A model generated the notes under the pieces. The model saw only the letters and a list, made by a program, of their open reading frames with translations. It made no database searches and was not told where the DNA came from. DNA of 60,370 bases. It comes from Clostridia bacterium (lineage in GTDB: Bacteria > Bacillota > Clostridia > Oscillospirales > Oscillospiraceae). This document shows, piece after piece, positions 2,771-60,208 of the stretch. Position 1 is the stretch's first letter, and the number at the start of each line of letters is the position of its first letter. Both the position numbers and the translations under genes were made by a program. The stretch spans positions 1 to 60,370 of the forward strand of contig JAKSPM010000001.1 in assembly GCA_024404825.1 (NCBI GenBank), written 5' to 3'.

Positions 2771-3799
2771 ATGAAAGAAATGCTTGAACAAATCAGAGTT
2801 CGCGCGCTGGACGCATTGGATGCCGCGCAGGATTCCAATGAGTTAGAGGCGCTGCGCGTTCAGCTGCTCGGCAAAAAGGGCGAATTGACCGCCGTTTTGA
2901 AGCAGATGGGCGGCCTGTCGGCAGAAGAACGCCCCGTCATGGGTCAGCTTGCAAACAATGTCCGCGCCGACATCGAAAAGAAGTTAGAGGCGCGCAAGGT
3001 TGAGCTGAAGGCAAAGGCGCTTGAGGAAAAGCTCAAGGCCGAAGCCATTGACATCACCATCCCCGGCGATCCCGTTTCCCTCGGCCACAAGCACCCGATG
3101 AACAAGGCGCTTGACGAGGCAAAGGAAATCTTCATCGGCATGGGCTTCCAGATCTTAGAGGGTCCCGAAGTCGAGCTTGCAGAATACAACTTCACCAAGC
3201 TCAACACCGAAGAAGGCCATCCGGCAAGAGACCGCAGTGATACGTTCTATATCACAGATGACGACTCCGTGCTTCTGCGCACGCAGACTTCCCCGATGCA
3301 GATCCGCGCAATGGAGGCGATCAAGAATCCTCCCATCCGCGTGCTGGCTCCCGGCCGCGTCTACCGCAAGGACGAGGTCGATGCGACCCACTCCCCGATG
3401 TTCCATCAGATCGAAGGCCTTGTCATCGACAAGGGCATCACGATGGCTGACCTCAAGGGCACGCTCGTCACACTGGTCAAGTCTCTCTACGGCGAGGATG
3501 CCGTGACCCGCTTCCGTCCGCACCACTTCCCGTTCACTGAACCGAGCTGTGAGGTTGACGTGCAGTGCTTCAAGTGCCACGGTGCAGGCTGCCCCACCTG
3601 TAAGGGTGAAGGCTGGATCGAGCTGCTCGGTGCCGGCATGGTGCATCCGAAGGTTTTGGAAAACTGCGGCATTGACCCCGAGGTCTATTCGGGCTTCGCC
3701 TTCGGCATCGGCCTGGAGCGTATGGCAATGCGCCGCTTCCGGATTTCCGACCTTCGTTTGATTTTTGAGAACGATGTTCGGTTCCTGGAGCAGTTCTGA
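2771..3799 (+). CDS. pheS: phenylalanine--tRNA ligase alpha subunit
   Basis: ORF 2627-3799 trimmed to ATG 2771 (MKEMLEQIRVRALDAL), because the upstream part overlaps the T-box terminator. Class II motifs are present (FRPHHFPFTEPS, GFAFGIGLERMAM). Confidence 0.92.
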   Translation: MKEMLEQIRVRALDALDAAQDSNELEALRVQLLGKKGELTAVLKQMGGLSAEERPVMGQLANNVRADIEKKLEARKVELKAKALEEKLKAEAIDITIPGDPVSLGHKHPMNKALDEAKEIFIGMGFQILEGPEVELAEYNFTKLNTEEGHPARDRSDTFYITDDDSVLLRTQTSPMQIRAMEAIKNPPIRVLAPGRVYRKDEVDATHSPMFHQIEGLVIDKGITMADLKGTLVTLVKSLYGEDAVTRFRPHHFPFTEPSCEVDVQCFKCHGAGCPTCKGEGWIELLGAGMVHPKVLENCGIDPEVYSGFAFGIGLERMAMRRFRISDLRLIFENDVRFLEQF

Positions 3800-3812
3800 G
3801 GAGGGTTAAAGT

Positions 3813-6197
3813 ATGAATATTTCGAGAAAATGGCTCAAAGAGTTTGTGGACATCGAAGCCACAGACCGTGAATATGCTGAAATCATGACCATCGCCGGTC
3901 AGAAGGTAGAATCCTATGCCCGGATGGACGACGAGATCAAGAATGTCGTTGTCGGTAAGGTCTTATCCATTGTCCGCCACGAAAATTCCGACCATATGTG
4001 GGTCTGTCAGATCGACATCGGAGAAAACGAGCCCGTGCAGATCGTCACCGGCGCGCAGAACGTCCATGAGGGTGACCTTGTTCCCGCCTGCCTGCATAAC
4101 AGTTACCTGCCCGGCGGCGTTCATATCACCAAGGGCAAGCTCCGCGGTGTGCTTTCCTGTGGTATGCTATGCTCCTTTGCAGAGCTCGGTCTGACGCAGA
4201 ACGATGTCCCCGGCGCTTATGCCGACGGCATCTGGATCCTCAATGACGAGGACTGCCATGTCGGTCAGGACATCAACGAGGTCATCGGCAATAACGACAC
4301 CATCGTTGAGTTTGAAATCACCAACAACCGCCCCGACTGCTACAGCCTGCTCGGCCTGGCACGTGAGACCGCAGCTGCGTTCAATGTTCCGATGAAGCAC
4401 CATGAGCCGGTCGTGAAAGGCGGCGGCAAGGGTAATCTTTTCGAGCTGCTGGATGTGGAAGTCGAAGCGGACGACCTTTGCAAGCGCTACTGCGCAAAGA
4501 TGGTACGCAATGTTAAAATCGAGCCGTCTCCCAAGTGGCTGCGTCAGCGTCTGCGCTCGGCAGGCATCCGCCCGATCAACAACATCGTTGACATCACGAA
4601 CTATGTCATGGTCGAATACGGCCAGCCGATGCACGCATTTGACTACCGCTATGTCAAGGGCGTCAAGATTATTGTCCGCCGCGCAGGTGAAGACAAGGAG
4701 CTGACCACGCTCGACGGCAATGTCCGTGCGCTTACCCCCGATATGCTCGTTATCGCAGACGAGACCCGCCCTGTGGGTCTTGCCGGTGTCATGGGCGGCG
4801 AAAATTCCGAGATCGCAGACGACACCGTGGATGTTGTGTTCGAATCCGCAAACTTTGACGGTACCTCCATCCGTAAAACTGCGCTCGCCCTCGGTATGCG
4901 TACCGATTCTTCGGCAAAATTCGAAAAGAACATTGACCCGATGCTGACCCTGCCCGCTGTCAACCGTGCGTGTGAGCTCGTAGAGCTGCTCGGAGCAGGC
5001 GAAGTGCTCGACGGCATCATCGATGTGATCAACTATGTTCCCGAACCTTACGAAATGCCCCTGGAGCCTGAAAAGATCAACGCCCTGCTCGGCACAAACA
5101 TCTCCACTGAAGATATGATCGAATATCTGCGCCGCGAGGAAGTCCCCGTGGAAGGCATGACGATCAAGGTCCCGTCCTGGCGTCCCGACCTGCGCAGAAT
5201 GGCTGACATTGCAGAAGAAGTCGGCCGCTTCTACGGCTACAACGAAATTGAAACCACCCTCATGCGCGGTGCAACGACCCGCGGCGGCTACTCTAAGTCC
5301 CAGCTTTTGGAAAATGCCGCAGGCGCTACGGCAAGAGCCCTCGGCTTCAATGAGATCATCACCTATTCGTTCGTCTCCCCGAGCATCTTCGACATGGTGA
5401 GAGTTCCTGCCGATTCTCCCCTGCGCAACACCATCAAGATTCAAAATCCGCTCGGCGAGGACACCTCGGTCATGCGTACCATCGCCCTGCCCTCCCTGCT
5501 GGATATTTTGAGTCGCAACTATGCACATCACAATAAGTCTGCAAAGCTTTATGAGCTGGCAAAGATTTACCTTCCCAAGGACGGCGAGCCTCTTCCCGAA
5601 GAACCCAAGCGCTTCCTGCTCGGCTCCTACGGTGCAAAGGAGACCTTCTTCTCCCTCAAGGGTGAGGTGGAGGCTCTGCTGGACGCACTTAATGTCAAGG
5701 AGCATGAATATGTTGCCATCACCGACCATCCGAGCTATCATCCCGGCCGCTGTGCCGCTTTGATGATTGACGGCAAGCAGTATGGCATCCTCGGTCAGAT
5801 CCATCCTCTGGTGGCGCAAAATTACGGCATTTCCGATGAAATCTTCGTAGCGGAGCTCGACTTTACCGAGCTGCAAAGCGAGCTTGCCGACGAACGCACC
5901 TTCAAGGCACTTCCGAAGTTCCCGTCCGTTGCACGTGACCTTGCCGTTGTCTGTGATGAAGCGGTCACCGTTGCGGCACTGGAAGGGTGCATCAAGTCTG
6001 CTGCCGGAAAGCTTCTCAAGGGTATCAACCTCTTTGATATCTACCGCGGCACCGGCATCCCCGAGGGCAAGAAGTCTACCGCATTCAGCCTCGTGCTGCG
6101 CAGCGATGACCACACCCTGACAGACGCCGACATCGACCCCGTTATGGAAAGCGTTCTCAAGGCCTTGGCCGAAAAACTCAACGCCGTTTTGAGATAA
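3813..6197 (+). CDS. pheT: phenylalanine--tRNA ligase beta subunit
   Basis: 794-aa ORF immediately after pheS. It has an N-terminal tRNA-binding domain (MNISRKWLKEFV), B3/4 and B5 regions, and a C-terminal FDX-ACB-like domain. Confidence 0.92.
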   Translation: MNISRKWLKEFVDIEATDREYAEIMTIAGQKVESYARMDDEIKNVVVGKVLSIVRHENSDHMWVCQIDIGENEPVQIVTGAQNVHEGDLVPACLHNSYLPGGVHITKGKLRGVLSCGMLCSFAELGLTQNDVPGAYADGIWILNDEDCHVGQDINEVIGNNDTIVEFEITNNRPDCYSLLGLARETAAAFNVPMKHHEPVVKGGGKGNLFELLDVEVEADDLCKRYCAKMVRNVKIEPSPKWLRQRLRSAGIRPINNIVDITNYVMVEYGQPMHAFDYRYVKGVKIIVRRAGEDKELTTLDGNVRALTPDMLVIADETRPVGLAGVMGGENSEIADDTVDVVFESANFDGTSIRKTALALGMRTDSSAKFEKNIDPMLTLPAVNRACELVELLGAGEVLDGIIDVINYVPEPYEMPLEPEKINALLGTNISTEDMIEYLRREEVPVEGMTIKVPSWRPDLRRMADIAEEVGRFYGYNEIETTLMRGATTRGGYSKSQLLENAAGATARALGFNEIITYSFVSPSIFDMVRVPADSPLRNTIKIQNPLGEDTSVMRTIALPSLLDILSRNYAHHNKSAKLYELAKIYLPKDGEPLPEEPKRFLLGSYGAKETFFSLKGEVEALLDALNVKEHEYVAITDHPSYHPGRCAALMIDGKQYGILGQIHPLVAQNYGISDEIFVAELDFTELQSELADERTFKALPKFPSVARDLAVVCDEAVTVAALEGCIKSAAGKLLKGINLFDIYRGTGIPEGKKSTAFSLVLRSDDHTLTDADIDPVMESVLKALAEKLNAVLR

Positions 6198-12852: not shown

Positions 12853-12925
12853 CCGTTGATTTTCAAGCCTTTTCCGAAGCATCAGCAAAGCAATGCCCGT
12901 GAAAACCGGCTTGGGTTCGACTCTC
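12853..12925 (-). repeat. intergenic copy of a motif also found inside the 529-bp element (57939-58015)
   Basis: The reverse complement reads GAGAGTCGAACCCAAGCCGGTTTTCACGGGCATTGCTTTGCTGATGCTTCGGAAAAGGCTTGAAAATCAACGG. Its core CGGTTTTCACGGG..GCTGATGCTTCGGAAAA matches 57956-57994 at 35 of 39 positions. Confidence 0.7.
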
Positions 12926-30256: not shown

Positions 30257-30369
30257 ACAATTAAAGATTGATAGCTGTAACGAAGTGCTGCGCGCACGGG
30301 CTTCCAACTATCACTTAGGCGTTGCTTGAGTGGAGTTATTTTGACATAGGGTCAAAATGGCTCCTTTTT
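30257..30369 (+). promoter_or_regulatory. structured 5' leader with intrinsic terminator (riboswitch or attenuator candidate; class not recognised)
   Basis: A 45-nt stem-loop closed by TGATAG (30269-30274) and CTATCA (30308-30313), with inner pairs GAAG/CTTC and GTGC/GCAC. A competing hairpin TCACTTAGG/CTTGAGTGG (30311-30334) follows. The terminator is GGAGttATTTTGAC-atagg-GTCAAAATggCTCC plus TTTTT (30332-30369), 31 nt before the ssnA ATG. Confidence 0.45.
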
Positions 30370-30400: not shown

Positions 30401-31759
30401 ATGTATTTACTCGCAAACGGCAGACTCATCACCAGAGATCCGTCCAATGGCTACATCAAAGACGGCGGTGTTGTCATTGACGGCACCAAAATCAAGGAAG
30501 TCGGCTCGACCGCTGATCTGAAAGCAAAATATCCCAATGCGGAATTCATTGACGCAAAGGGCGGCGTGATCATGCCCGCTTTCATCAATGCACACACCCA
30601 CATCTACTCGGCGCTCGCTCGCGGCCTTTCCATCAAGAGCAATAACGCTGACAATTTCTACGATGTTCTGGACAAGCAGTGGTGGGCAATCGACCGCAAG
30701 CTCTACATGGGCGGCACGAGAGCTTCTGCAAATGCCCTTTACATCGACTGCATCAAGCAGGGTGTTACCACCGTATTTGACCATCACGCATCTTACGGCG
30801 AGATTCCCGGCACACTGCACACAATCGCCGAATCTGCAAAGAAATTCGGCATCCGTTCCTGCCTGTGCTACGAAGTCTCCGACCGTGACGGCGAAGAAAA
30901 GTGCCTGCAGGGCATCAAGGAAAACGCTGATTTCATCACCGAATGTGAAAAGAACAAGGACCCGATGCTTGCAGCCATGTTCGGCGGCCACGCCCTGTTC
31001 ACCATCTCTGACAAGACCTTTGAGCGCATGGTCGAAGCCAACAACGGCCGTACCGGCTACCATATCCACGTTTCCGAAGGCTGGAACGACGTTTACGACT
31101 CCATTCAGAACTACGGCAGACGTCCGGTTGAAAGGCTGCGCGATCATGGCATTCTCGGTGAAAAGACCATCCTCGGTCATTGCATCCACGTAACAGACAA
31201 GGAAATTGACCTGATCCGTGAAACCGGCACAATGGTCGTCAACAATCCCGAATCCAACATGGGCAACGCTGTCGGCACCTGCCCGGTACTTCCCCTCTAC
31301 AAGAACGGCATCCTGCTCGGCTTGGGCACTGACGCCTACACCAACGATATGCTGGAATCCATCAAGGTCGCTCTGATTGCGCAAAGACAGAACGCAGAGC
31401 TTCCGAATGTCGGTTGGTGCGAAGTGACCGATATGCTGTTCAAGAACAACGCAAAGATCGGTGCAAAGTACTTCCCGGATGAACTCGGCGTTCTCAAAGC
31501 CGGCGCTGCCGCTGACGTGATCGTCATGGACTACAAGCCATTCACCCCGTTCTCCGACGCCAACATCGACGGCCATATGATCTTCGGTATGACCGGCCGC
31601 CAGTGCATGACCACCATTGCCAACGGCAAGCTGCTGATGAAGGACCGTGAGCTTGTCGGCATCGACGAGGAAGCAGAAAATGCTTACATCCTCGAAGAAT
31701 CCAAGAAGCTTTGGGGCGATCTGAACGGCTGCAAATACTCTGCCGACGGTGAATGCTGA
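30401..31759 (+). CDS. ssnA: putative aminohydrolase SsnA
   Basis: 452-aa amidohydrolase (FINAHTHIYS, HIHVSE, LGHCIHV, GLGTDA) immediately upstream of ygfK, as in the E. coli ygfK-ssnA neighbourhood. Confidence 0.7.
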   Translation: MYLLANGRLITRDPSNGYIKDGGVVIDGTKIKEVGSTADLKAKYPNAEFIDAKGGVIMPAFINAHTHIYSALARGLSIKSNNADNFYDVLDKQWWAIDRKLYMGGTRASANALYIDCIKQGVTTVFDHHASYGEIPGTLHTIAESAKKFGIRSCLCYEVSDRDGEEKCLQGIKENADFITECEKNKDPMLAAMFGGHALFTISDKTFERMVEANNGRTGYHIHVSEGWNDVYDSIQNYGRRPVERLRDHGILGEKTILGHCIHVTDKEIDLIRETGTMVVNNPESNMGNAVGTCPVLPLYKNGILLGLGTDAYTNDMLESIKVALIAQRQNAELPNVGWCEVTDMLFKNNAKIGAKYFPDELGVLKAGAAADVIVMDYKPFTPFSDANIDGHMIFGMTGRQCMTTIANGKLLMKDRELVGIDEEAENAYILEESKKLWGDLNGCKYSADGEC

Positions 31760-31996: not shown

Positions 31997-34945
31997 ATGT
32001 CCGAAAGAATGTACCCCATTCCCTTTAGATCCCTGATGAACTGGATCGTCACCGAGTATGCCCGTGAGGGTGAGCTGTTCGGTGTCCATTCCGCCTACCG
32101 CCCCAAGGGCAAGAAGCTGCCCATCTTCGGTGAAACCATCGAAACGCCCTTCGGTCCCGCAGCAGGCCCCAACAGCCAGCTTGCACAGAACATCATCGCC
32201 TCCTACATGGCAGGTGCAAGATTCTTTGAAGTCAAGACCGTTCAGAAGATGGACGGTCACGACCTGGCAGTCTGCGTTCCCCGTCCCTGCATTTTAGCCA
32301 ACGATGAAGGCTACAACCAGGAATGGTCGACCGAGCTGACTGTCCCGCAGGCACAGGATGAATATATCAAGGCATGGTGTGCTTTGAAGGTTCTGTCCAA
32401 GGTCTACGGTCTCGGCGATCCCGACGGCTTCGTGTTCAATATGTCTGTCGGCTACGACTTGGAAGGCATCAAGGGCGACAAGGTCAACTCCTACATTGAA
32501 AACATGAAGGACGCATCCAAGACCGCGCAGTTCAAGGAATGCCTGGAAGTCCTGACCGAGATGTTCCCTGAGGAAAAGGACTTTATCGCAAAGATCTCCC
32601 CGAAGGTCTCCGGCTCCATCACCCTGTCCACCCTGCACGGCTGCCCGCCCGATGAGATTGAGCGCATTGCAAGCTATCTCATCAGCGAGAAGAAGGTTCA
32701 CACCTTTGTCAAGTGCAACCCGACCATTCTCGGCTACAAGACCGCAAGAGAAACGCTCGACGCGATGGGCTATGACTACATCGTATTTGACGAGCATCAC
32801 TTCAACGAAGACCTGCAGTGGGCTGACGCCGTCCCGATGTTCGAGCGTCTGCGCGAGCTTGCAGCAAAGAACGGTGTGGAGTTCGGTTTGAAGCTCTCCA
32901 ACACCTTCCCCGTTGACACCACCCGCGGCGAGCTGCCCGGCGACGAGATGTATATGTCCGGCCGTGCACTGTTCCCGCTGACCATTGAAATGTGCAACCG
33001 CATTTCCAAGCAATTCAAAGGCACGATGCGTATCTCCTTTGCAGGCGGCGCTGAGTTCTTCAACTGCGATAAGCTGTTTGCAGCAGGCATCTGGCCGATC
33101 ACCGTTGCAACCACCATTCTCAAGCCCGGCGGCTACAACCGCCTGAAGCAGATGTGCGAGAAGGTCGACGATCTCCCCTTCAAGGCATTTGCCGGCACCG
33201 ACTCCGCTGCCATCGAGGCACTCTCCGTTGACAGCCATTCGAACTTCCATCATGTCAAGCCCATCAAGCCGCTGCCCGAGCGCAAGTCCGACAAGAAGGT
33301 TCCCTGGATCGACTGCTTCACCGCTCCGTGTAAGGGTGGCTGCCCGATCGCGCAGGACATCCCCGAATACATTGAGCTTTGCAGAAAGGGACTCTATGGC
33401 CCGGCACTCAAGCTCATCACCGAAAAGAACGCACTTCCGTTCATCACCGGCACCATCTGCGCACATCGCTGCCAGGGTAAGTGCACGAGAAACTTCTATG
33501 ATGAATCCGTGCAGATCCGCGACACCAAGCTTCTTGCTGCAAAGAACGGCTTTGAGGCTCTGATGGCTTCCATCAAGGCACCCGAAAAGTTAGACGGCAA
33601 GAAGGTCGCTATCATCGGCGGCGGCCCGACCGGTATCGCAGCTGCTTACTTCCTCGGCCGCGCAGGCATCGACACCACCATCTACGAGCGTGAGAATCAG
33701 CTCGGCGGTATCCCGCGCCATGTCATCCCCGCGTTCCGTATCACTGACGAAGCCATCGACAAGGACATCGCTCTGATGCAGAAATACAATGTCGAGGTCA
33801 AGCTCGGTGCTCCTGCTCCCGAAATTAGCGAGCTGAAAAAGCTTGGCTACACCCACATCCTGCTCGCTGTCGGCGCATGGAAAGCCGGCAAGCTTGATAT
33901 CGAAGGCAATGTCGTCGGCGTTATCGGCTGGATGAAGGATATGAAGAAGGAAGTCAAGCCTTGTCTGAGCGGTAATATCGCTGTTGTCGGCGCAGGCAAC
34001 ACTGCAATGGATGCTGCCCGTGTTGCAAAGCGCATGGGTGCAAATGCAACGATCGTCTATCGCCGCACCAAGAAGTATATGCCCGCTGACGAGCATGAGC
34101 TGGCGCTTGCCATTGAAGACGGTGTCAACTTTGTCGAGCTGGCTGCTCCCATCAAGCAGGCTGACGGCAAGCTGACCCTTGAGAAGATGGTTCTCGGTGA
34201 GCCTGACGCTTCCGGCCGCCGCAGCCCCGTTGGTTCCGGCGAGTTCTTTGACATCCCCTGCGATCTTGTCATTTCCGCAGTCGGCGAAAAGGTCGACGAC
34301 GAGCTGATGGCTGCCAACGGCATCGAAATGGGTCGCAAGGGTCCCGAATTTGAGACGAACATTGAAGGCGTTTATGCCGCAGGCGACTGCCACAGAGGCC
34401 CGGCTACCGTTGTTGAAGGCATTGCTGACGCTGCCAAGTTTGCAGAAATCGTCATCGGAAAGTCCCATGAATATGAGATTCCCGAACAGGCCTATGTTAC
34501 CAAGGCTGATGCCATTGCAAAGAAGGGCATCCTCAAGATGGCAAAGGACGCCTGCTGTGAAGGCTCCCGCTGCTTAGACTGCAACACCGTCTGCGAAAAC
34601 TGCGCAGATTCCTGCCCGAACCGTGCAAATGTCGTCATCAAGCTCGCTGACGGCCGTCACGAAATTCTGCACATTGACAAGATGTGCAACGAGTGCGGCA
34701 ACTGCACGCACTTCTGCCCCTACGCTTCCGAGCCCTGCCACGACAAGTTCACGCTGTTCCAGACGGAAGAAGATTTCGTCGACAGCAAGAACGCAGGCGT
34801 GCTGTTCCTCGGCGGTGACAAGGTGCGCGTGAGACTGTTCGATGTGAAGGATTACGACCTCGCTGACAAGGACAATGGCCTGCCCGCAGAGATTGAAACC
34901 CTGATCCTGACCGTCCGCGACAAGTACGCTTACCTTTACAAATAA
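31997..34945 (+). CDS. ygfK: YgfK-type putative selenate reductase / oxidoreductase subunit (DPD-like, FAD/NAD(P) and 4Fe-4S domains)
   Basis: 982 aa. The N-terminus MYPIPFRSLMNWI is like YgfK. There is a GltD-like dinucleotide fold (VAIIGGGPTGIAAAYFL) and C-terminal ferredoxin motifs (CLDCNTVCENCADSCP, CNECGNCTHFCP). Confidence 0.8.
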   Translation: MSERMYPIPFRSLMNWIVTEYAREGELFGVHSAYRPKGKKLPIFGETIETPFGPAAGPNSQLAQNIIASYMAGARFFEVKTVQKMDGHDLAVCVPRPCILANDEGYNQEWSTELTVPQAQDEYIKAWCALKVLSKVYGLGDPDGFVFNMSVGYDLEGIKGDKVNSYIENMKDASKTAQFKECLEVLTEMFPEEKDFIAKISPKVSGSITLSTLHGCPPDEIERIASYLISEKKVHTFVKCNPTILGYKTARETLDAMGYDYIVFDEHHFNEDLQWADAVPMFERLRELAAKNGVEFGLKLSNTFPVDTTRGELPGDEMYMSGRALFPLTIEMCNRISKQFKGTMRISFAGGAEFFNCDKLFAAGIWPITVATTILKPGGYNRLKQMCEKVDDLPFKAFAGTDSAAIEALSVDSHSNFHHVKPIKPLPERKSDKKVPWIDCFTAPCKGGCPIAQDIPEYIELCRKGLYGPALKLITEKNALPFITGTICAHRCQGKCTRNFYDESVQIRDTKLLAAKNGFEALMASIKAPEKLDGKKVAIIGGGPTGIAAAYFLGRAGIDTTIYERENQLGGIPRHVIPAFRITDEAIDKDIALMQKYNVEVKLGAPAPEISELKKLGYTHILLAVGAWKAGKLDIEGNVVGVIGWMKDMKKEVKPCLSGNIAVVGAGNTAMDAARVAKRMGANATIVYRRTKKYMPADEHELALAIEDGVNFVELAAPIKQADGKLTLEKMVLGEPDASGRRSPVGSGEFFDIPCDLVISAVGEKVDDELMAANGIEMGRKGPEFETNIEGVYAAGDCHRGPATVVEGIADAAKFAEIVIGKSHEYEIPEQAYVTKADAIAKKGILKMAKDACCEGSRCLDCNTVCENCADSCPNRANVVIKLADGRHEILHIDKMCNECGNCTHFCPYASEPCHDKFTLFQTEEDFVDSKNAGVLFLGGDKVRVRLFDVKDYDLADKDNGLPAEIETLILTVRDKYAYLYK

Positions 34946-34963
34946 GCAACCATCCTGAACTGA

Positions 34964-34997
34964 AAACAGGAGCCTGAAATCAGGCTCCTGTTTTTCA
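34964..34997. repeat. left copy of a 34-bp direct duplication; it is the intrinsic terminator hairpin of ygfK
   Basis: GAAAACAGGAGCCTGAAATCAGGCTCCTGTTTTT is identical (34/34) to 35249-35282. Confidence 0.9.
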
Positions 34998-35248
34998 GAC
35001 TGTCAATAAACCCCGAAACCGTCAAAGTCGAGAGTCGGAACGAGGCATTATGCACCGAATATCGTTTGACGAGAATCGTACCATCGCAACACATCCAAGC
35101 CCGAAAAGGCTTGCTGCGCAAGGACTTTGACTTACTGCGCAACTCTCACTCTACCGTACCTATGTACGCCTACGAGTGAGAGTTGCTTGTCTTTCAGGCT
35201 TTCTTGACCGTCTGCCAGCGTGTCAAAAAACTTTTTTGACACGCTGGA
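34998..35248 (-). mobile_element. 251-bp non-coding repeat element (short variant); MITE-like with imperfect terminal inverted repeats
   Basis: It starts CAGACTGTCAATAAA and ends TTTTTTGACACGCTG. The reverse complement matches 57830-57929 plus 58213-58358 with 2 substitutions and one loop indel. Strand is given relative to the long copy. Confidence 0.75.
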
Positions 35249-35282
35249 AAACAGGAGCCTGAAATCAGGCTCCTGTTTTTTT
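35249..35282. repeat. right copy of the 34-bp direct duplication (second terminator hairpin)
   Basis: Identical to 34964-34997. Confidence 0.9.
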
Positions 35283-57795: not shown

Positions 57796-57829
57796 ATAAA
57801 AACGGCTCCGATCTCGGAGCCGTTTTTTA
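57796..57829. repeat. left copy of a 34-bp direct duplication (terminator-type hairpin)
   Basis: ATAAAAACGGCTCCGATCTCGGAGCCGTTTTTTA is identical (34/34) to 58359-58392. Confidence 0.9.
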
Positions 57830-58358
57830 CAGCGTGTCAAAAAAGTATTTTTTGACACGCTGGCAGACGGTCAAGAAAGCCTGAAAGACAAGCAACTCTC
57901 ACTCGTAGGCGTACATAGGTACGGTAGAGAAAGCCGAGGAGAGCTGTCCCTAAGTCGGTTTTCACGGGTGTCGCTTCGCTGATGCTTCGGAAAACTCCTT
58001 GGAAATCCATCAAGGATTCCCTGCGTCGTTTTGCTTGCCTCAACAAACCGACACTCCGGGAAAACTGCTTCGCATCTGTGAGCGAGTAGTTTTGGAGAGA
58101 TTTTCGGTGCGGCGGACGTAGCCTTGCTGACGCAAGGCAAGGACAACAAGCCGAAAATCACCCAAAAGAGCCACTCACAGACGATTTGGGGTCAGCTTTC
58201 CTCGGCTTTAGCTGCGCAGTAAGTCAAAGTCCTTGCGCAGCAAGCCTTTTCGGGCTTGGATGTGTTGCGATGGTACGATTCTCGTCAAACGATATTCGGT
58301 GCATAGTGCCTCGTTCCGAATCTCGACTTTGACGGTTTCGGGGTTTATTGACAGTCTG
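57830..58358 (+). mobile_element. 529-bp non-coding repeat element (long variant) with a 283-nt central module
   Basis: It starts CAGCGTGTCAAAAAA and ends TTTATTGACAGTCTG (15-nt imperfect TIR, 12/15). The first 33 nt form a perfect palindrome. The outer parts match the reverse complement of 34998-35248. There is no credible ORF. Confidence 0.75.
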
Positions 58359-58392
58359 ATAAAAACGGCTCCGATCTCGGAGCCGTTTTTTA
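58359..58392. repeat. right copy of the 34-bp direct duplication; it is the intrinsic terminator of the M3 peptidase gene
   Basis: Identical to 57796-57829. It lies 1 nt from the stop at 58394. Confidence 0.9.
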
Positions 58393-58393
58393 T

Positions 58394-60208
58394 TTATTTA
58401 AGGGCATCTTCGAAATACGATTCCAGGTAATTTACTCTGTCATCATCAAACGGGGAGGTCATTCCCGTCCTATCGAGAAGTTCAAGGAAGTCAAGCTCGC
58501 CGGCAAGCTCGATCATCTCCATATATTTATCCAGGCCGTCGCCCTTCTGCTGATCCTCTAAGGAGAAAATCTGAAGTGCAACATCGGCGGAGGTACAGTA
58601 GCTTATGATATAATCCGGTGCAATGAAGAAGTGGTTGATATCAACCCAGACCTGCTTATTATACCAGTCCATGCCGTAAGCATACATGCCGTAATCGCGT
58701 ACGACATCTGCATAAGTGTCGTTGATTATGTCAACCGTTATAGTGTCGGGATCCAGTTGATACACACGATCCTCAAAATCTGCATACATGCCCTGATAGA
58801 CGAAGACTTCAAGCAGATCGAGCAGCTTTAAGGTCTTCAGGCGTTCAACCGTTTTCTTGTCAAAGTCGCTGTAGCTCAAGGCAATTGCTTCCATTGCCTG
58901 CGAGAAAATTTCGCACTTATCCAAAGAATCGTCTTCGTTGTCGTTAATCATGGAATCGGAGAAATGTCCGAATTCATGCGCAAGCGTCATAAAATCAGAT
59001 TCTGTTCCGGTAGGGCTTATGTAAACAAAAGGTTCTGCGTAGGTCGGCAGATATGTCTCATAGGAGCCGGACATTTTGCTTGACGATTCCGTAGCATCCC
59101 ACAGTTCAAAATATTCCATGAAGGAGAAGAATTCATAGAAGGTTGCGTCATCTGCAGCAGAGTCGATCCGGTACAGCGCGCGCTTCAGTGTATCGATCAC
59201 CGTGTCAAAATCCATATCGTCATATTCCAGGTTGACCTCATCGGAATATCGCAGTGACATATACAAAGGTGCAAGCTCATCACAGATTTCTTCAATGTAT
59301 TCGCGTGCCATCTGCGGGGTATAGTCTCTGCCATAGTTATATTCGTAGGCGAAATCCGCATAGGAATCATAGCCGACGGTCTTTGCCATCGCCTGTCGGG
59401 TCTGCACAAGCTGCACATAAATCTCGCCCATGGACGCATTGTATTTTGCAAAATACGCCGGGTAGATACTGTTATATAATGTGTTGTAGTCCCCTTCGTA
59501 TTCTTCCATCAGATCGTCCAGAAGGCACTCCTCGCCGTTAAACATGATCGTTTGGTTTTCCTGCAGCTGCATATAGTCGGTCTGCAGCTTGGCCTCCTTC
59601 TGCGCAAGCTTGACAAATTCATCGTTGGTATAGATGTCGTGTTCAAGGTAGAAGTCAAGGAAGTTATCACCAAAATACTCTTCTTCTAACATTTCTTTGT
59701 CGGGACATTCCGCAGCAGCCTCGTAAAGAAGCTCTAACGCCTGCTGAATGAGCGGAGCCTGGTTTTCCAGATAGTCGTATTCTTCCTTGTAGAAAGTGTC
59801 GCTGAGATTTTCACAATAGCAAATATAGGAAACGGAATCCATCGTGGAGAACTCATCAGAATACGGCTCGAGCGCATAGATCGCGTCCAAAATCTCTTCG
59901 CCGGTGGCACCCGATTTGATGAGCGCCGTGGTATCATTGATTTCGGCAATCAGCCTCTGCACATCCGGCCGCTGATATTCGATCTCGGAAAAAGCAACCG
60001 CATCAGGATATGCAGACGGATCAAAATCATCCGGAAGCTCGATCGGCTCCGGAGAATCCGTCGGCTTCGGAGAATGCGTCGGATCAGGAGAATCCGTCGG
60101 CTTCGGGCGTTCGGGGTCGTCGGACGGACGAATCACCCAATTACAGCCTGTAAACAGCAGGCTGAGACACAAAACAAGTGCGGAAAGGCAAAGAAGTTTT
60201 CTTTTCAT
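58394..60208 (-). CDS. M3-family oligoendopeptidase-like zinc metallopeptidase, lipoprotein
   Basis: Lipobox LLFTGC, a Pro/Thr/Asp-rich linker, and the zinc motif TLAHEFGHF. 604 aa. Confidence 0.7.
   Translation of the reverse strand: MKRKLLCLSALVLCLSLLFTGCNWVIRPSDDPERPKPTDSPDPTHSPKPTDSPEPIELPDDFDPSAYPDAVAFSEIEYQRPDVQRLIAEINDTTALIKSGATGEEILDAIYALEPYSDEFSTMDSVSYICYCENLSDTFYKEEYDYLENQAPLIQQALELLYEAAAECPDKEMLEEEYFGDNFLDFYLEHDIYTNDEFVKLAQKEAKLQTDYMQLQENQTIMFNGEECLLDDLMEEYEGDYNTLYNSIYPAYFAKYNASMGEIYVQLVQTRQAMAKTVGYDSYADFAYEYNYGRDYTPQMAREYIEEICDELAPLYMSLRYSDEVNLEYDDMDFDTVIDTLKRALYRIDSAADDATFYEFFSFMEYFELWDATESSSKMSGSYETYLPTYAEPFVYISPTGTESDFMTLAHEFGHFSDSMINDNEDDSLDKCEIFSQAMEAIALSYSDFDKKTVERLKTLKLLDLLEVFVYQGMYADFEDRVYQLDPDTITVDIINDTYADVVRDYGMYAYGMDWYNKQVWVDINHFFIAPDYIISYCTSADVALQIFSLEDQQKGDGLDKYMEMIELAGELDFLELLDRTGMTSPFDDDRVNYLESYFEDALK

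Follow-up and report, generated by a model that had tools for sequence, protein, structure and literature searches.

Within the window analyzed here, which is a whole stretch of 60,370 nucleotides from a Clostridia bacterium of the Oscillospiraceae (contig JAKSPM010000001.1), a 251-bp non-coding element lies directly behind the gene ygfK, between two identical copies of a complete terminator hairpin. It belongs to an undescribed MITE family (miniature inverted-repeat transposable elements), which is widespread in gut and rumen Oscillospiraceae/Clostridia. Insertion of these elements duplicates the whole palindrome at which it takes place. The length of the duplication is set by the target palindrome and not by a fixed stagger or enzyme spacing, since the repeats of 17–41 bp found across the family track the size of the palindrome. 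Mechanistically, we favor with moderate confidence that the element is a non-autonomous DNA transposon, which would be served in trans by an IS1182-type DDE transposase and would be inserted at the 5′ feet of an extruded cruciform.

The element and the duplicated hairpin at the ygfK locus

The 34-nt repeat GAAAACAGGAGCCTGAAATCAGGCTCCTGTTTTT is present at positions 34962–34995 and again at 35247–35280, with 34 of 34 positions identical. Both repeats enclose 251 nt (34996–35246), here called copy A, which start with CAGACTGTCAATAAA at the 5′ side and end with TTTTTTGACACGCTG at the 3′ side. The two tips form a terminal inverted repeat matching in 12 of 15 positions, and the last 31 bp (35216–35246) are a perfect palindrome with 15-bp arms, CAGCGTGTCAAAAAA-c-TTTTTTGACACGCTG, abbreviated PAL in the following. 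No credible open reading frame (ORF) is present, the longest one overlapping copy A having 68 amino acids and not being conserved. An initial annotation of this DNA had already described the duplication, the 251-nt element, its inverted repeat, its palindrome and the lack of a coding region, and all of these were recovered; its coordinates had to be corrected, as the true positions of the repeats are 2 nt lower. The features of the locus are the following:

31997–34945, plus strand: ygfK, putative selenate reductase subunit (NCBIfam TIGR03315 with 1252.7 bits, cut-off 835.3), located upstream of copy A; its terminator is the target of copy A
34962–34995, plus strand: left 34-bp target duplication, the ygfK terminator hairpin (34/34 against 35247–35280), with a stem of 14–15 bp counting the A/T tracts and a DNA fold of −15.6 kcal/mol (z = −7.65)
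34996–35246, plus strand: MITE copy A, 251 bp, non-coding, aligning with 48 non-redundant relatives of ~250 bp
34996–35027, plus strand: left inverted repeat (IRL) with conserved subterminal extension, CAGACTGTCAATAAACCCCGAAACCGTCAAAG, an exact 32-mer occurring in the window only at copy A and at the copy B described below; most columns are at least 90% conserved in the family alignment
35139–35186, plus strand: conserved internal hairpin with a 13-bp outer stem, a 5-bp inner stem and a conserved loop, seen by covariation and by its DNA fold (−16.5 kcal/mol, z = −8.6)
35200–35214, plus strand: internal right inverted repeat (IRR′) with the sequence TTTCTTGACCGTCTG, which is CAGACGGTCAAGAAA in reverse complement; a single nucleotide separates it from PAL
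35216–35246, plus strand: terminal palindrome PAL; its outer arm functions as the right terminal repeat, and its inner arm is an inverted copy thereof
35247–35280, plus strand: right 34-bp target duplication (34/34 against the left copy)

Folded as DNA, PAL reaches −14.9 kcal/mol (z = −7.7), and the duplicated hairpins of copies A and B, taken as single-stranded DNA, reach ~−15.5 kcal/mol each (z < −7.6). Both 34-bp duplications are centred exactly on the dyad of the hairpin. The ygfK hairpin stays complete after the insertion and its T tract is reduced from 7 to 5 T, because copy A begins after the fifth T. Furthermore, a second complete terminator hairpin faces the downstream side of copy A. 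The label terminator for the flanking hairpins is taken from sequence and position only; of the four hairpin copies flanking A and B, three escape a simple terminator scan, because it counts their T tracts into the stem.

A second copy and its exact empty site

The second copy in the window, copy B (57830–58358), is the reverse complement of copy A plus an internal insert of 280 bp. Of the arms common to both copies, one spans 149 nt and has 3 mismatches, and the other spans ~98 nt and differs by a 2-nt indel in the loop of the palindrome, which amounts to ~98% identity. This near-identity had been noted in the initial annotation, which gave one loop indel and counted two substitutions, where three are present. 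Both copies reside at different terminators, each with a perfect 34-bp duplication, and the one of copy B, ATAAAAACGGCTCCGATCTCGGAGCCGTTTTTTA at 57796–57829 and 58359–58392, differs from that of copy A. The initial annotation had overlooked the duplication at copy B. Among the ORFs overlapping copy B none is credible, the longest one (96 amino acids) not being conserved. The end motifs are restricted to copies A and B within the window, where 0–0.23 matches are expected by chance. The features of copy B are:

57796–57829, minus strand: duplicated target next to PAL of copy B; this terminator hairpin differs in sequence from the one at copy A
57830–58358, minus strand: MITE copy B, 529 bp, corresponding to copy A plus the nested insert
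57930–58209, minus strand: 280-bp insert nested within copy B, bearing terminal inverted repeats of 17 bp (AAAGCCGAGGAaAGCTG)
58359–58392, minus strand: target duplication of copy B on the IRL side, the terminator of an M3 oligoendopeptidase gene (58394–60208)

An empty counterpart of the copy B site was found in the Logan contig L112 (SRR17543908). This contig encodes the 604-amino acid protein adjoining copy B, identical in every residue, and its intergenic region consists of flank, a single hairpin (1917–1950) and flank; the 529-bp element and the second hairpin are absent and the rest is identical. L112 is thus the exact empty site from a near-identical strain, and because it holds one hairpin where the window holds two, the insertion created the 34-bp target duplication. 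Here, the initial annotation had proposed a recently active, non-autonomous mobile element whose insertion duplicates an entire terminator hairpin, and had named an empty site with a single hairpin as a check. The empty site with identical flanks, the near-identical copies and the lack of coding capacity all bear this out.

In the same sample, the contig with the gene downstream of copy A begins inside the hairpin. The copy A site is probably filled in this sample, since an exact repeat of 34 bp would break a short-k-mer assembly at the hairpin.

The insert of copy B (57930–58209) is bounded by AAAGCCGAGGAaAGCTG and CAGCTCTCCTCGGCTTT and breaks the 5′ arm of the conserved internal hairpin. A part of 59 nt has 83% identity to the intergenic positions 12858–12915, and because of this the insert probably represents a second small repeat family.

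Target duplications throughout the family

Further copies were collected from species-representative genomes (one genome per species, searched with the terminal palindrome), yielding at least 109 loci, and from metagenomes searched with the left end, yielding at least 120 further loci. Among the matches listed from the species scan, all titles belong to Clostridia (Oscillospiraceae, Clostridiales, Ruminococcaceae, Ruminococcus, Oscillibacter, Faecousia, Eubacterium), and the samples came from the gut of human, goat, reindeer, roe deer and chicken. Of the 80 matches listed, MGYG-HGUT-02250 contributes 9 and Reindeer_2_mag_46 contributes 13, each being a single assembly.

The flanks were catalogued for 106 complete copies from gut and rumen Oscillospiraceae/Clostridia, counting direct repeats of at least 15 bp with at most 10% mismatch. 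Such repeats are present in 70 copies and are 17–41 bp long. The outermost bases of the repeat pair with each other in 44 of these 70, and in 20 the pairing starts one base further in. In 53 of the 70, the repeat is symmetric around its midpoint and forms a stem of 6 bp or more without interruption, and in 44 an edge carries AAAA or TTTT. The target palindrome differs from copy to copy; the repeat ends follow the ends of the palindrome, and the repeat is centred on its dyad. Among the remaining 36 copies, nearly all have a hairpin on each flank, and at least 13 of these are diverged copies of one hairpin. The initial annotation had raised the question whether every copy would be flanked by a 34-bp terminator duplication: palindromic duplications indeed recur, the constant length of 34 bp does not.

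Furthermore, the orientation of the insertion shows no bias in respect to the side of the T tract, as expected for a symmetric target. A human faecal phage record contains one relative whose flanks consist of AATAATTTGTAATTATT, an AT-rich palindrome of 17 bp. Hence the target need not be GC-rich.

In diverged duplicate pairs (L013, L046, L051, L060, L110 and others), each hairpin is usually still a good palindrome in which both arms have changed. Because the diverged copies change on both arms, almost never via G-T, the flanking palindromes must be kept or corrected at the DNA level after insertion.

Anatomy of the element family

An alignment of 49 non-redundant copies of ~250 bp revealed a common architecture. 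The left inverted repeat begins with CAGACTGTCAAWAAA and carries a conserved extension of ~33 bp (consensus CAGACTGTCAAAAAAGTCCGTAACCGTCAAAAT), which is followed by a variable middle. The right half is conserved and contains a long hairpin, then the internal copy of the inverted repeat (...GAACTTTTTGACAGCCTG), one base, and as right terminus the palindrome CAGCGTGTCRAAAAA-(1–4 nt)-TTTTTYGACACGCTG. The match between the left repeat and the internal right repeat extends further than the match between the two tips.

Within this alignment the terminal palindrome is paired to 98.8%. For the internal hairpin, all 13 outer pairs covary with changes on both sides, and 96.6% of the cells are paired, compared to 31–50% in a control in which the partner was slid by 1–3 columns. 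Since one-sided changes of the G-U type are almost absent, a palindrome kept at the DNA level fits this pattern better than an RNA structure. At the element, no Rfam family reaches its gathering score, and weak generic hairpin matches appear only at a loose threshold.

The lengths within the family cluster at 245–256 bp, with size variants of ~162, ~310 and 346 bp. The variants of 310–346 bp (L028, L042, L051, L061, L072, L075, L081, L082) contain a module bounded by GTCATTGCGAGG ... CCTCGCAATGAC, which apparently is another small inverted-repeat element nested in the family. Pairs of the form 'palindrome + 1 nt + CAGRCTGTC...' had been considered as tandem elements and were rejected, as they represent the same right end on the other strand.

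Concerning the surroundings of copy A, an ssnA RNA motif (Rfam RF03031, 62.2 bits, gathering score 37.3) is found at 30265–30312. It sits just 5′ of the gene of the SsnA aminohydrolase (30401–31759), which is followed by ygfK, and together they form a selenium/purine-type gene cluster.

Probable relation to the IS1182 family and proposed mechanism

Hairpins as insertion targets are already known for IS1182-family insertion sequences (IS). IS1272 and the composite TnSha1 are reported to insert into hairpins, mostly confirmed terminators just 3′ of genes, and to do so without primary sequence specificity; the stem-loop is reportedly deleted and no duplication left (PMC4923244, PMC5678879). In the published model, the 3′ ends attack an extruded cruciform, where an attack at the 3′ feet leads to replacement of the stem-loop, and duplicating the entire stem-loop is drawn as one possible outcome (PMC5678879). 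The view of the initial annotation that so long a duplication is atypical of the common IS and MITE families needs the correction that IS1272 and this model provide a precedent.

For comparison, IS1272 from a staphylococcal plasmid, ISClbu1 and further copies of it, members from E. faecium and L. plantarum and 33 members from viral contigs were used. The tips of ~20 IS1182-family elements read RGGGCTGTC or GAGGCTGTG, with GCTGT starting from base 4; GGGGCTGTC and GAGGCTGGG, with GCTG from base 4, also occur. The tips within the element family, CAGGCTGTC, GAGGCTGTC, GAGACTGTC and CAGACTGTC, have the same register as the IS1182 tip RGGGCTGTC / GAGGCTGKG. This match is short and lends moderate support to a relationship. 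A second similarity is found at the ends: ISClbu1 and the elements L263, L268, L270 and L287 end in a hairpin formed by the terminal repeat and an adjacent inverted copy, and the right end of the element is built likewise by its terminal palindrome, whereas its left end is without such a hairpin. Third, palindromic duplications or hairpins flank nearly all of the 106 copies, which matches the preference of the IS1182 family for palindromes and terminators. Since the register of the tip motif, the terminal hairpin made from the repeat and the palindromic targets agree, a link to the IS1182 family is suggested.

Based on this, the following course of insertion is proposed. An IS1182-type DDE transposase, supplied in trans, would bind the element at its left repeat and, on the right, at the outer arm of its terminal palindrome, and this palindrome may be presented as a folded donor end. 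The target would be chosen by its shape, namely a palindrome, usually an intrinsic terminator, present as a cruciform or hairpin. The joining phosphates would be adjacent at the four-way junction, while in the linear sequence they would lie 17–41 bp, i.e., the whole palindrome, apart. Repair synthesis would then fill both single-stranded hairpin arms, resulting in the order palindrome, element, palindrome, such that the upstream gene and the downstream side would each retain a complete hairpin. Cleavage at the two bases of the hairpin, as put forward in the initial annotation, fits the data, in which the duplication length depends on palindrome size and the dyad lies in the middle of the repeat.

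Search for a transposase or an autonomous copy

In or beside the ~230 loci, nothing resembling a transposase was detected, and no copy has coding capacity. Left ends located up to 6 kb from terminal palindromes as well as pairs of repeat-like motifs 0.9–3 kb apart revealed no autonomous copy; here, the flanking hairpin served as a probe for the right boundary of left ends without a palindrome. Long spans that had been candidates for autonomous copies were rejected, since they consist of host genes between separate copies or of copies with a degraded palindrome. Clustering of the ORFs adjoining the palindromes and of all ORFs of at least 200 amino acids across the loci yielded no recurrent protein. 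A tblastn search with four IS1182-family transposases against all loci (~1.5 Mb of DNA around the copies) gave nothing.

In the plasmid and phage collections, the sole relative is a non-coding copy in MT835999. Scans of viral contigs with three end and loop patterns gave an unrelated AT-rich hairpin with one pattern, nothing with another, and two copies without a terminal palindrome with the third. A protein search with ISClbu1 retrieved close Clostridium relatives only and did not locate the partner of the element.

A single candidate parent, an N-terminal transposase fragment 140 bp inside the left end of locus L064 (~3660–3917, minus strand), was rejected, as it belongs to a nested IS5-group element with the ends GGCAATACCGCACA. 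The whole IS5-group element is visible in L115 (2224–3350) and encodes a frameshifted InsH-like transposase. A protein search with the IS5-group N-terminus gave only fragments of 29–72 amino acids, one of which is recorded on at least 1000 contigs. This suggests that the IS5-group element is very common in these gut bacteria and that most of its copies are broken.

Points against the proposed mechanism and alternative explanations

Several observations weigh against the IS1182-based mechanism. An autonomous copy with matching ends was not found in the ~230 loci, the plasmid and phage collections or the viral contigs, and thus the longer copy encoding a transposase or integrase, for which the initial annotation had suggested a search, did not appear there. 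The assignment to a transposase family would rest on the likeness of short repeats, the architecture and the type of target. None of the examined IS1182-family elements shows a duplication of a whole hairpin, and in 15 IS1182 elements from viral contigs any direct repeat is 8 bp or shorter. The outcome known from IS1272, a deleted stem-loop without duplication, is likewise not matched by the element, which duplicates the whole stem-loop. As background, the ISfinder table lists direct repeats of 0–60 bp for IS1182. It is only from the end products that we infer a cruciform as target and the polarity with which the strands are joined.

Furthermore, in ~16 of the 106 copies the hairpins on the two sides differ from each other; such copies include L004, L007, L020, L037, L083, L093, L128, L141, L193, L204 and L207. 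Such flanks may have arisen by recombination between copies at different terminators, through inversions or deletions. In a few copies the terminal palindrome is missing and only the side of the left repeat has a hairpin. Both groups need a secondary recombination or deletion to be reconciled with the mechanism.

Palindrome-less copies are L168 (minus strand, from 3305) as well as L292 and L293 from IMG/VR phage contigs. The junction of L168 has CCTG in common with the end of the expected hairpin copy, which suggests a secondary microhomology deletion.

The alternative that survives best retains the MITE and the structure-directed insertion and assigns them to another DDE family (ISAs1-like, IS5-like or undescribed), the IS1182 likeness being convergent or superficial. 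This alternative is unlikely. The ~1.5 Mb around the copies harbors no IS1182-type gene, the examined IS1182 elements do not give hairpin duplications, and the similarity of the repeats spans only ~9 bases of the tip, all of which would be in line with it. However, three independent features (register of the tip, terminal hairpin, palindromic target) agree with IS1182, and the sole transposase fragment inside a copy stems from the unrelated IS5-group element described above.

Rather unlikely is a junction-specific integrase, which would read four-way or hairpin DNA both at the end of the element, i.e., at its terminal palindrome, and at the target. This would represent a distinct, undescribed mobilisation system instead of a relative of IS1182. 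If such an enzyme were encoded away from the copies, this would explain why only non-coding copies are found at the ~230 loci.

Doubtful to a higher degree is that the target is a hairpin on single-stranded DNA, in the lagging-strand template or a transcription bubble, which is then copied on both sides by replication or repair. Terminators are transcribed and transiently single-stranded, and the end product would be the same order of hairpin, element and hairpin. Also the covariation in the internal hairpin and in the diverged pairs, which almost never passes via G-T, would indicate that the palindromes are maintained at the DNA level. On the contrary, no orientation bias exists against the T tract of the terminator, and single-strand transposons typically have neither terminal inverted repeats nor target duplications.

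Very unlikely is a structure-specific non-DDE integrase, either Cas1-like or a junction-resolving enzyme encoded elsewhere. A Cas1-like integrase duplicates the whole CRISPR repeat when a spacer is inserted, and the duplication of a whole palindrome of 17–41 bp resembles this; the lack of a linked transposase in the ~230 loci would also fit. However, Cas1-type duplications have a fixed length, whereas those of the element vary with the palindrome. In addition, terminal inverted repeats with an IS1182-like tip are typical of DDE transposons, and neither a cas1-like nor any other recurrent gene adjoins the copies.

Finally, an explanation without any transposition would have the two hairpins either as an ancestral tandem or as components of the element. 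Nothing beyond a first look at a single locus favors it, and it is refuted by the single hairpin of the empty site and by the fact that each copy is flanked by another palindrome.

Novelty and implications

In the literature searches, no described family emerged in which entire terminator hairpins are regularly duplicated and the hairpin determines the length, and this Oscillospiraceae MITE family was not found described. Normally, a target-site duplication is short and of fixed length, as it is given by the distance between two active sites on straight DNA. In this family, ~70 independent natural insertions carry a duplication that equals the whole palindrome, of any size from 17 to 41 bp. 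They are strong natural evidence for the capture of a folded target, either cruciform or hairpin, with joining at the base of the hairpin, and they point to a transposase that reads the shape of the DNA and not its sequence.

This type of insertion offers a low-cost way to spread in gene-dense genomes, since the element lands just 3′ of genes and restores a complete terminator on both sides. On the practical side, the family breaks assemblies of gut Oscillospiraceae, as many of its matches lie at contig ends, and its strain-level polymorphisms are usable as markers.

Comparison with known systems

The element is small and non-coding, has terminal inverted repeats, is flanked by a duplication demonstrated by filled and empty sites, and occurs in many dispersed copies, which are hallmarks of a MITE. 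Bacterial MITEs such as Correia/NEMIS, RUP, ERIC and Chunjie are likewise small, non-coding and multicopy with terminal inverted repeats. Their target duplications are short and of fixed length (2–10 bp), in contrast to the 17–41 bp of the element, which equal the target palindrome. Further likenesses are that bacterial MITEs are mostly intergenic, strain-polymorphic and sometimes nested in each other (PMC10969869).

For non-B DNA that directs strand transfer, a precedent is given by RAG and other DDE transposases, which prefer hairpins or cruciforms in vitro; for RAG, four nucleotides at the tip of the hairpin modulate the efficiency of transposition (PMC1618415). The element differs from RAG as it joins at the base of the hairpin. 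Moreover, the target duplication of RAG is short and fixed.

REPIN/RAYT and IS200/IS605 resemble the element in that they are tied to extragenic palindromes and need hairpin-forming ends. They move as single strands, without terminal inverted repeats or target duplication; the element has both and therefore does not belong to them. Group IIC introns also insert after terminator hairpins. They contain ribozyme domains, usually with a reverse-transcriptase ORF, and make no duplication. As no Rfam family reaches its gathering score, the length is 251 bp and a duplication is present, an intron of this group was rejected.

Within the IS1182 family, ISClbu1 and its clostridial and viral-contig relatives have the tip GGGGCTGTATC or GGGGCTGTC with GCTGT in the same register, hairpin ends made of the repeat and its inverted copy, e.g., GGCTGTATCAAATTGAATTT-aaaa-AATTTCAATTTGATACAGCC, and palindromic insertion sites. 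In contrast to the element, they are 1.8–2.0 kb long and encode a transposase with DUF772, DDE_Tnp_1 and DDE_Tnp_1_6. Furthermore, ISClbu1 is found with one arm of the host palindrome on either side and has no direct repeat, and none longer than 8 bp is seen in its relatives. In the ISClbu1 copies L249–L256 from Clostridium butyricum, the flanks are reverse complements of each other, e.g., AATATAGATAAAGG, IS, CCTTTATCTATATT, and both ends of ISClbu1 are hairpins made from the terminal repeat.

IS1272 and TnSha1 have hairpin targets, mostly intrinsic terminators, and extra copies of the terminal repeat in common with the element. The inverted repeat of IS1272, GAGTCTGGGACATAAA, shares its start (GAG.CTG) and its end (ATAAA) with GAGACTGTCGATAAA of the element family. 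However, IS1272 is autonomous, encodes a transposase of 548–570 amino acids and removes all or part of the stem-loop, whereas the element is non-coding and duplicates the whole of it. In terms of the published model (PMC5678879), the element would correspond to joining at the 5′ feet and not at the 3′ feet. Its outcome mirrors the hairpin deletion of IS1272, and a hypothetical branch of this model thereby becomes a testable case.

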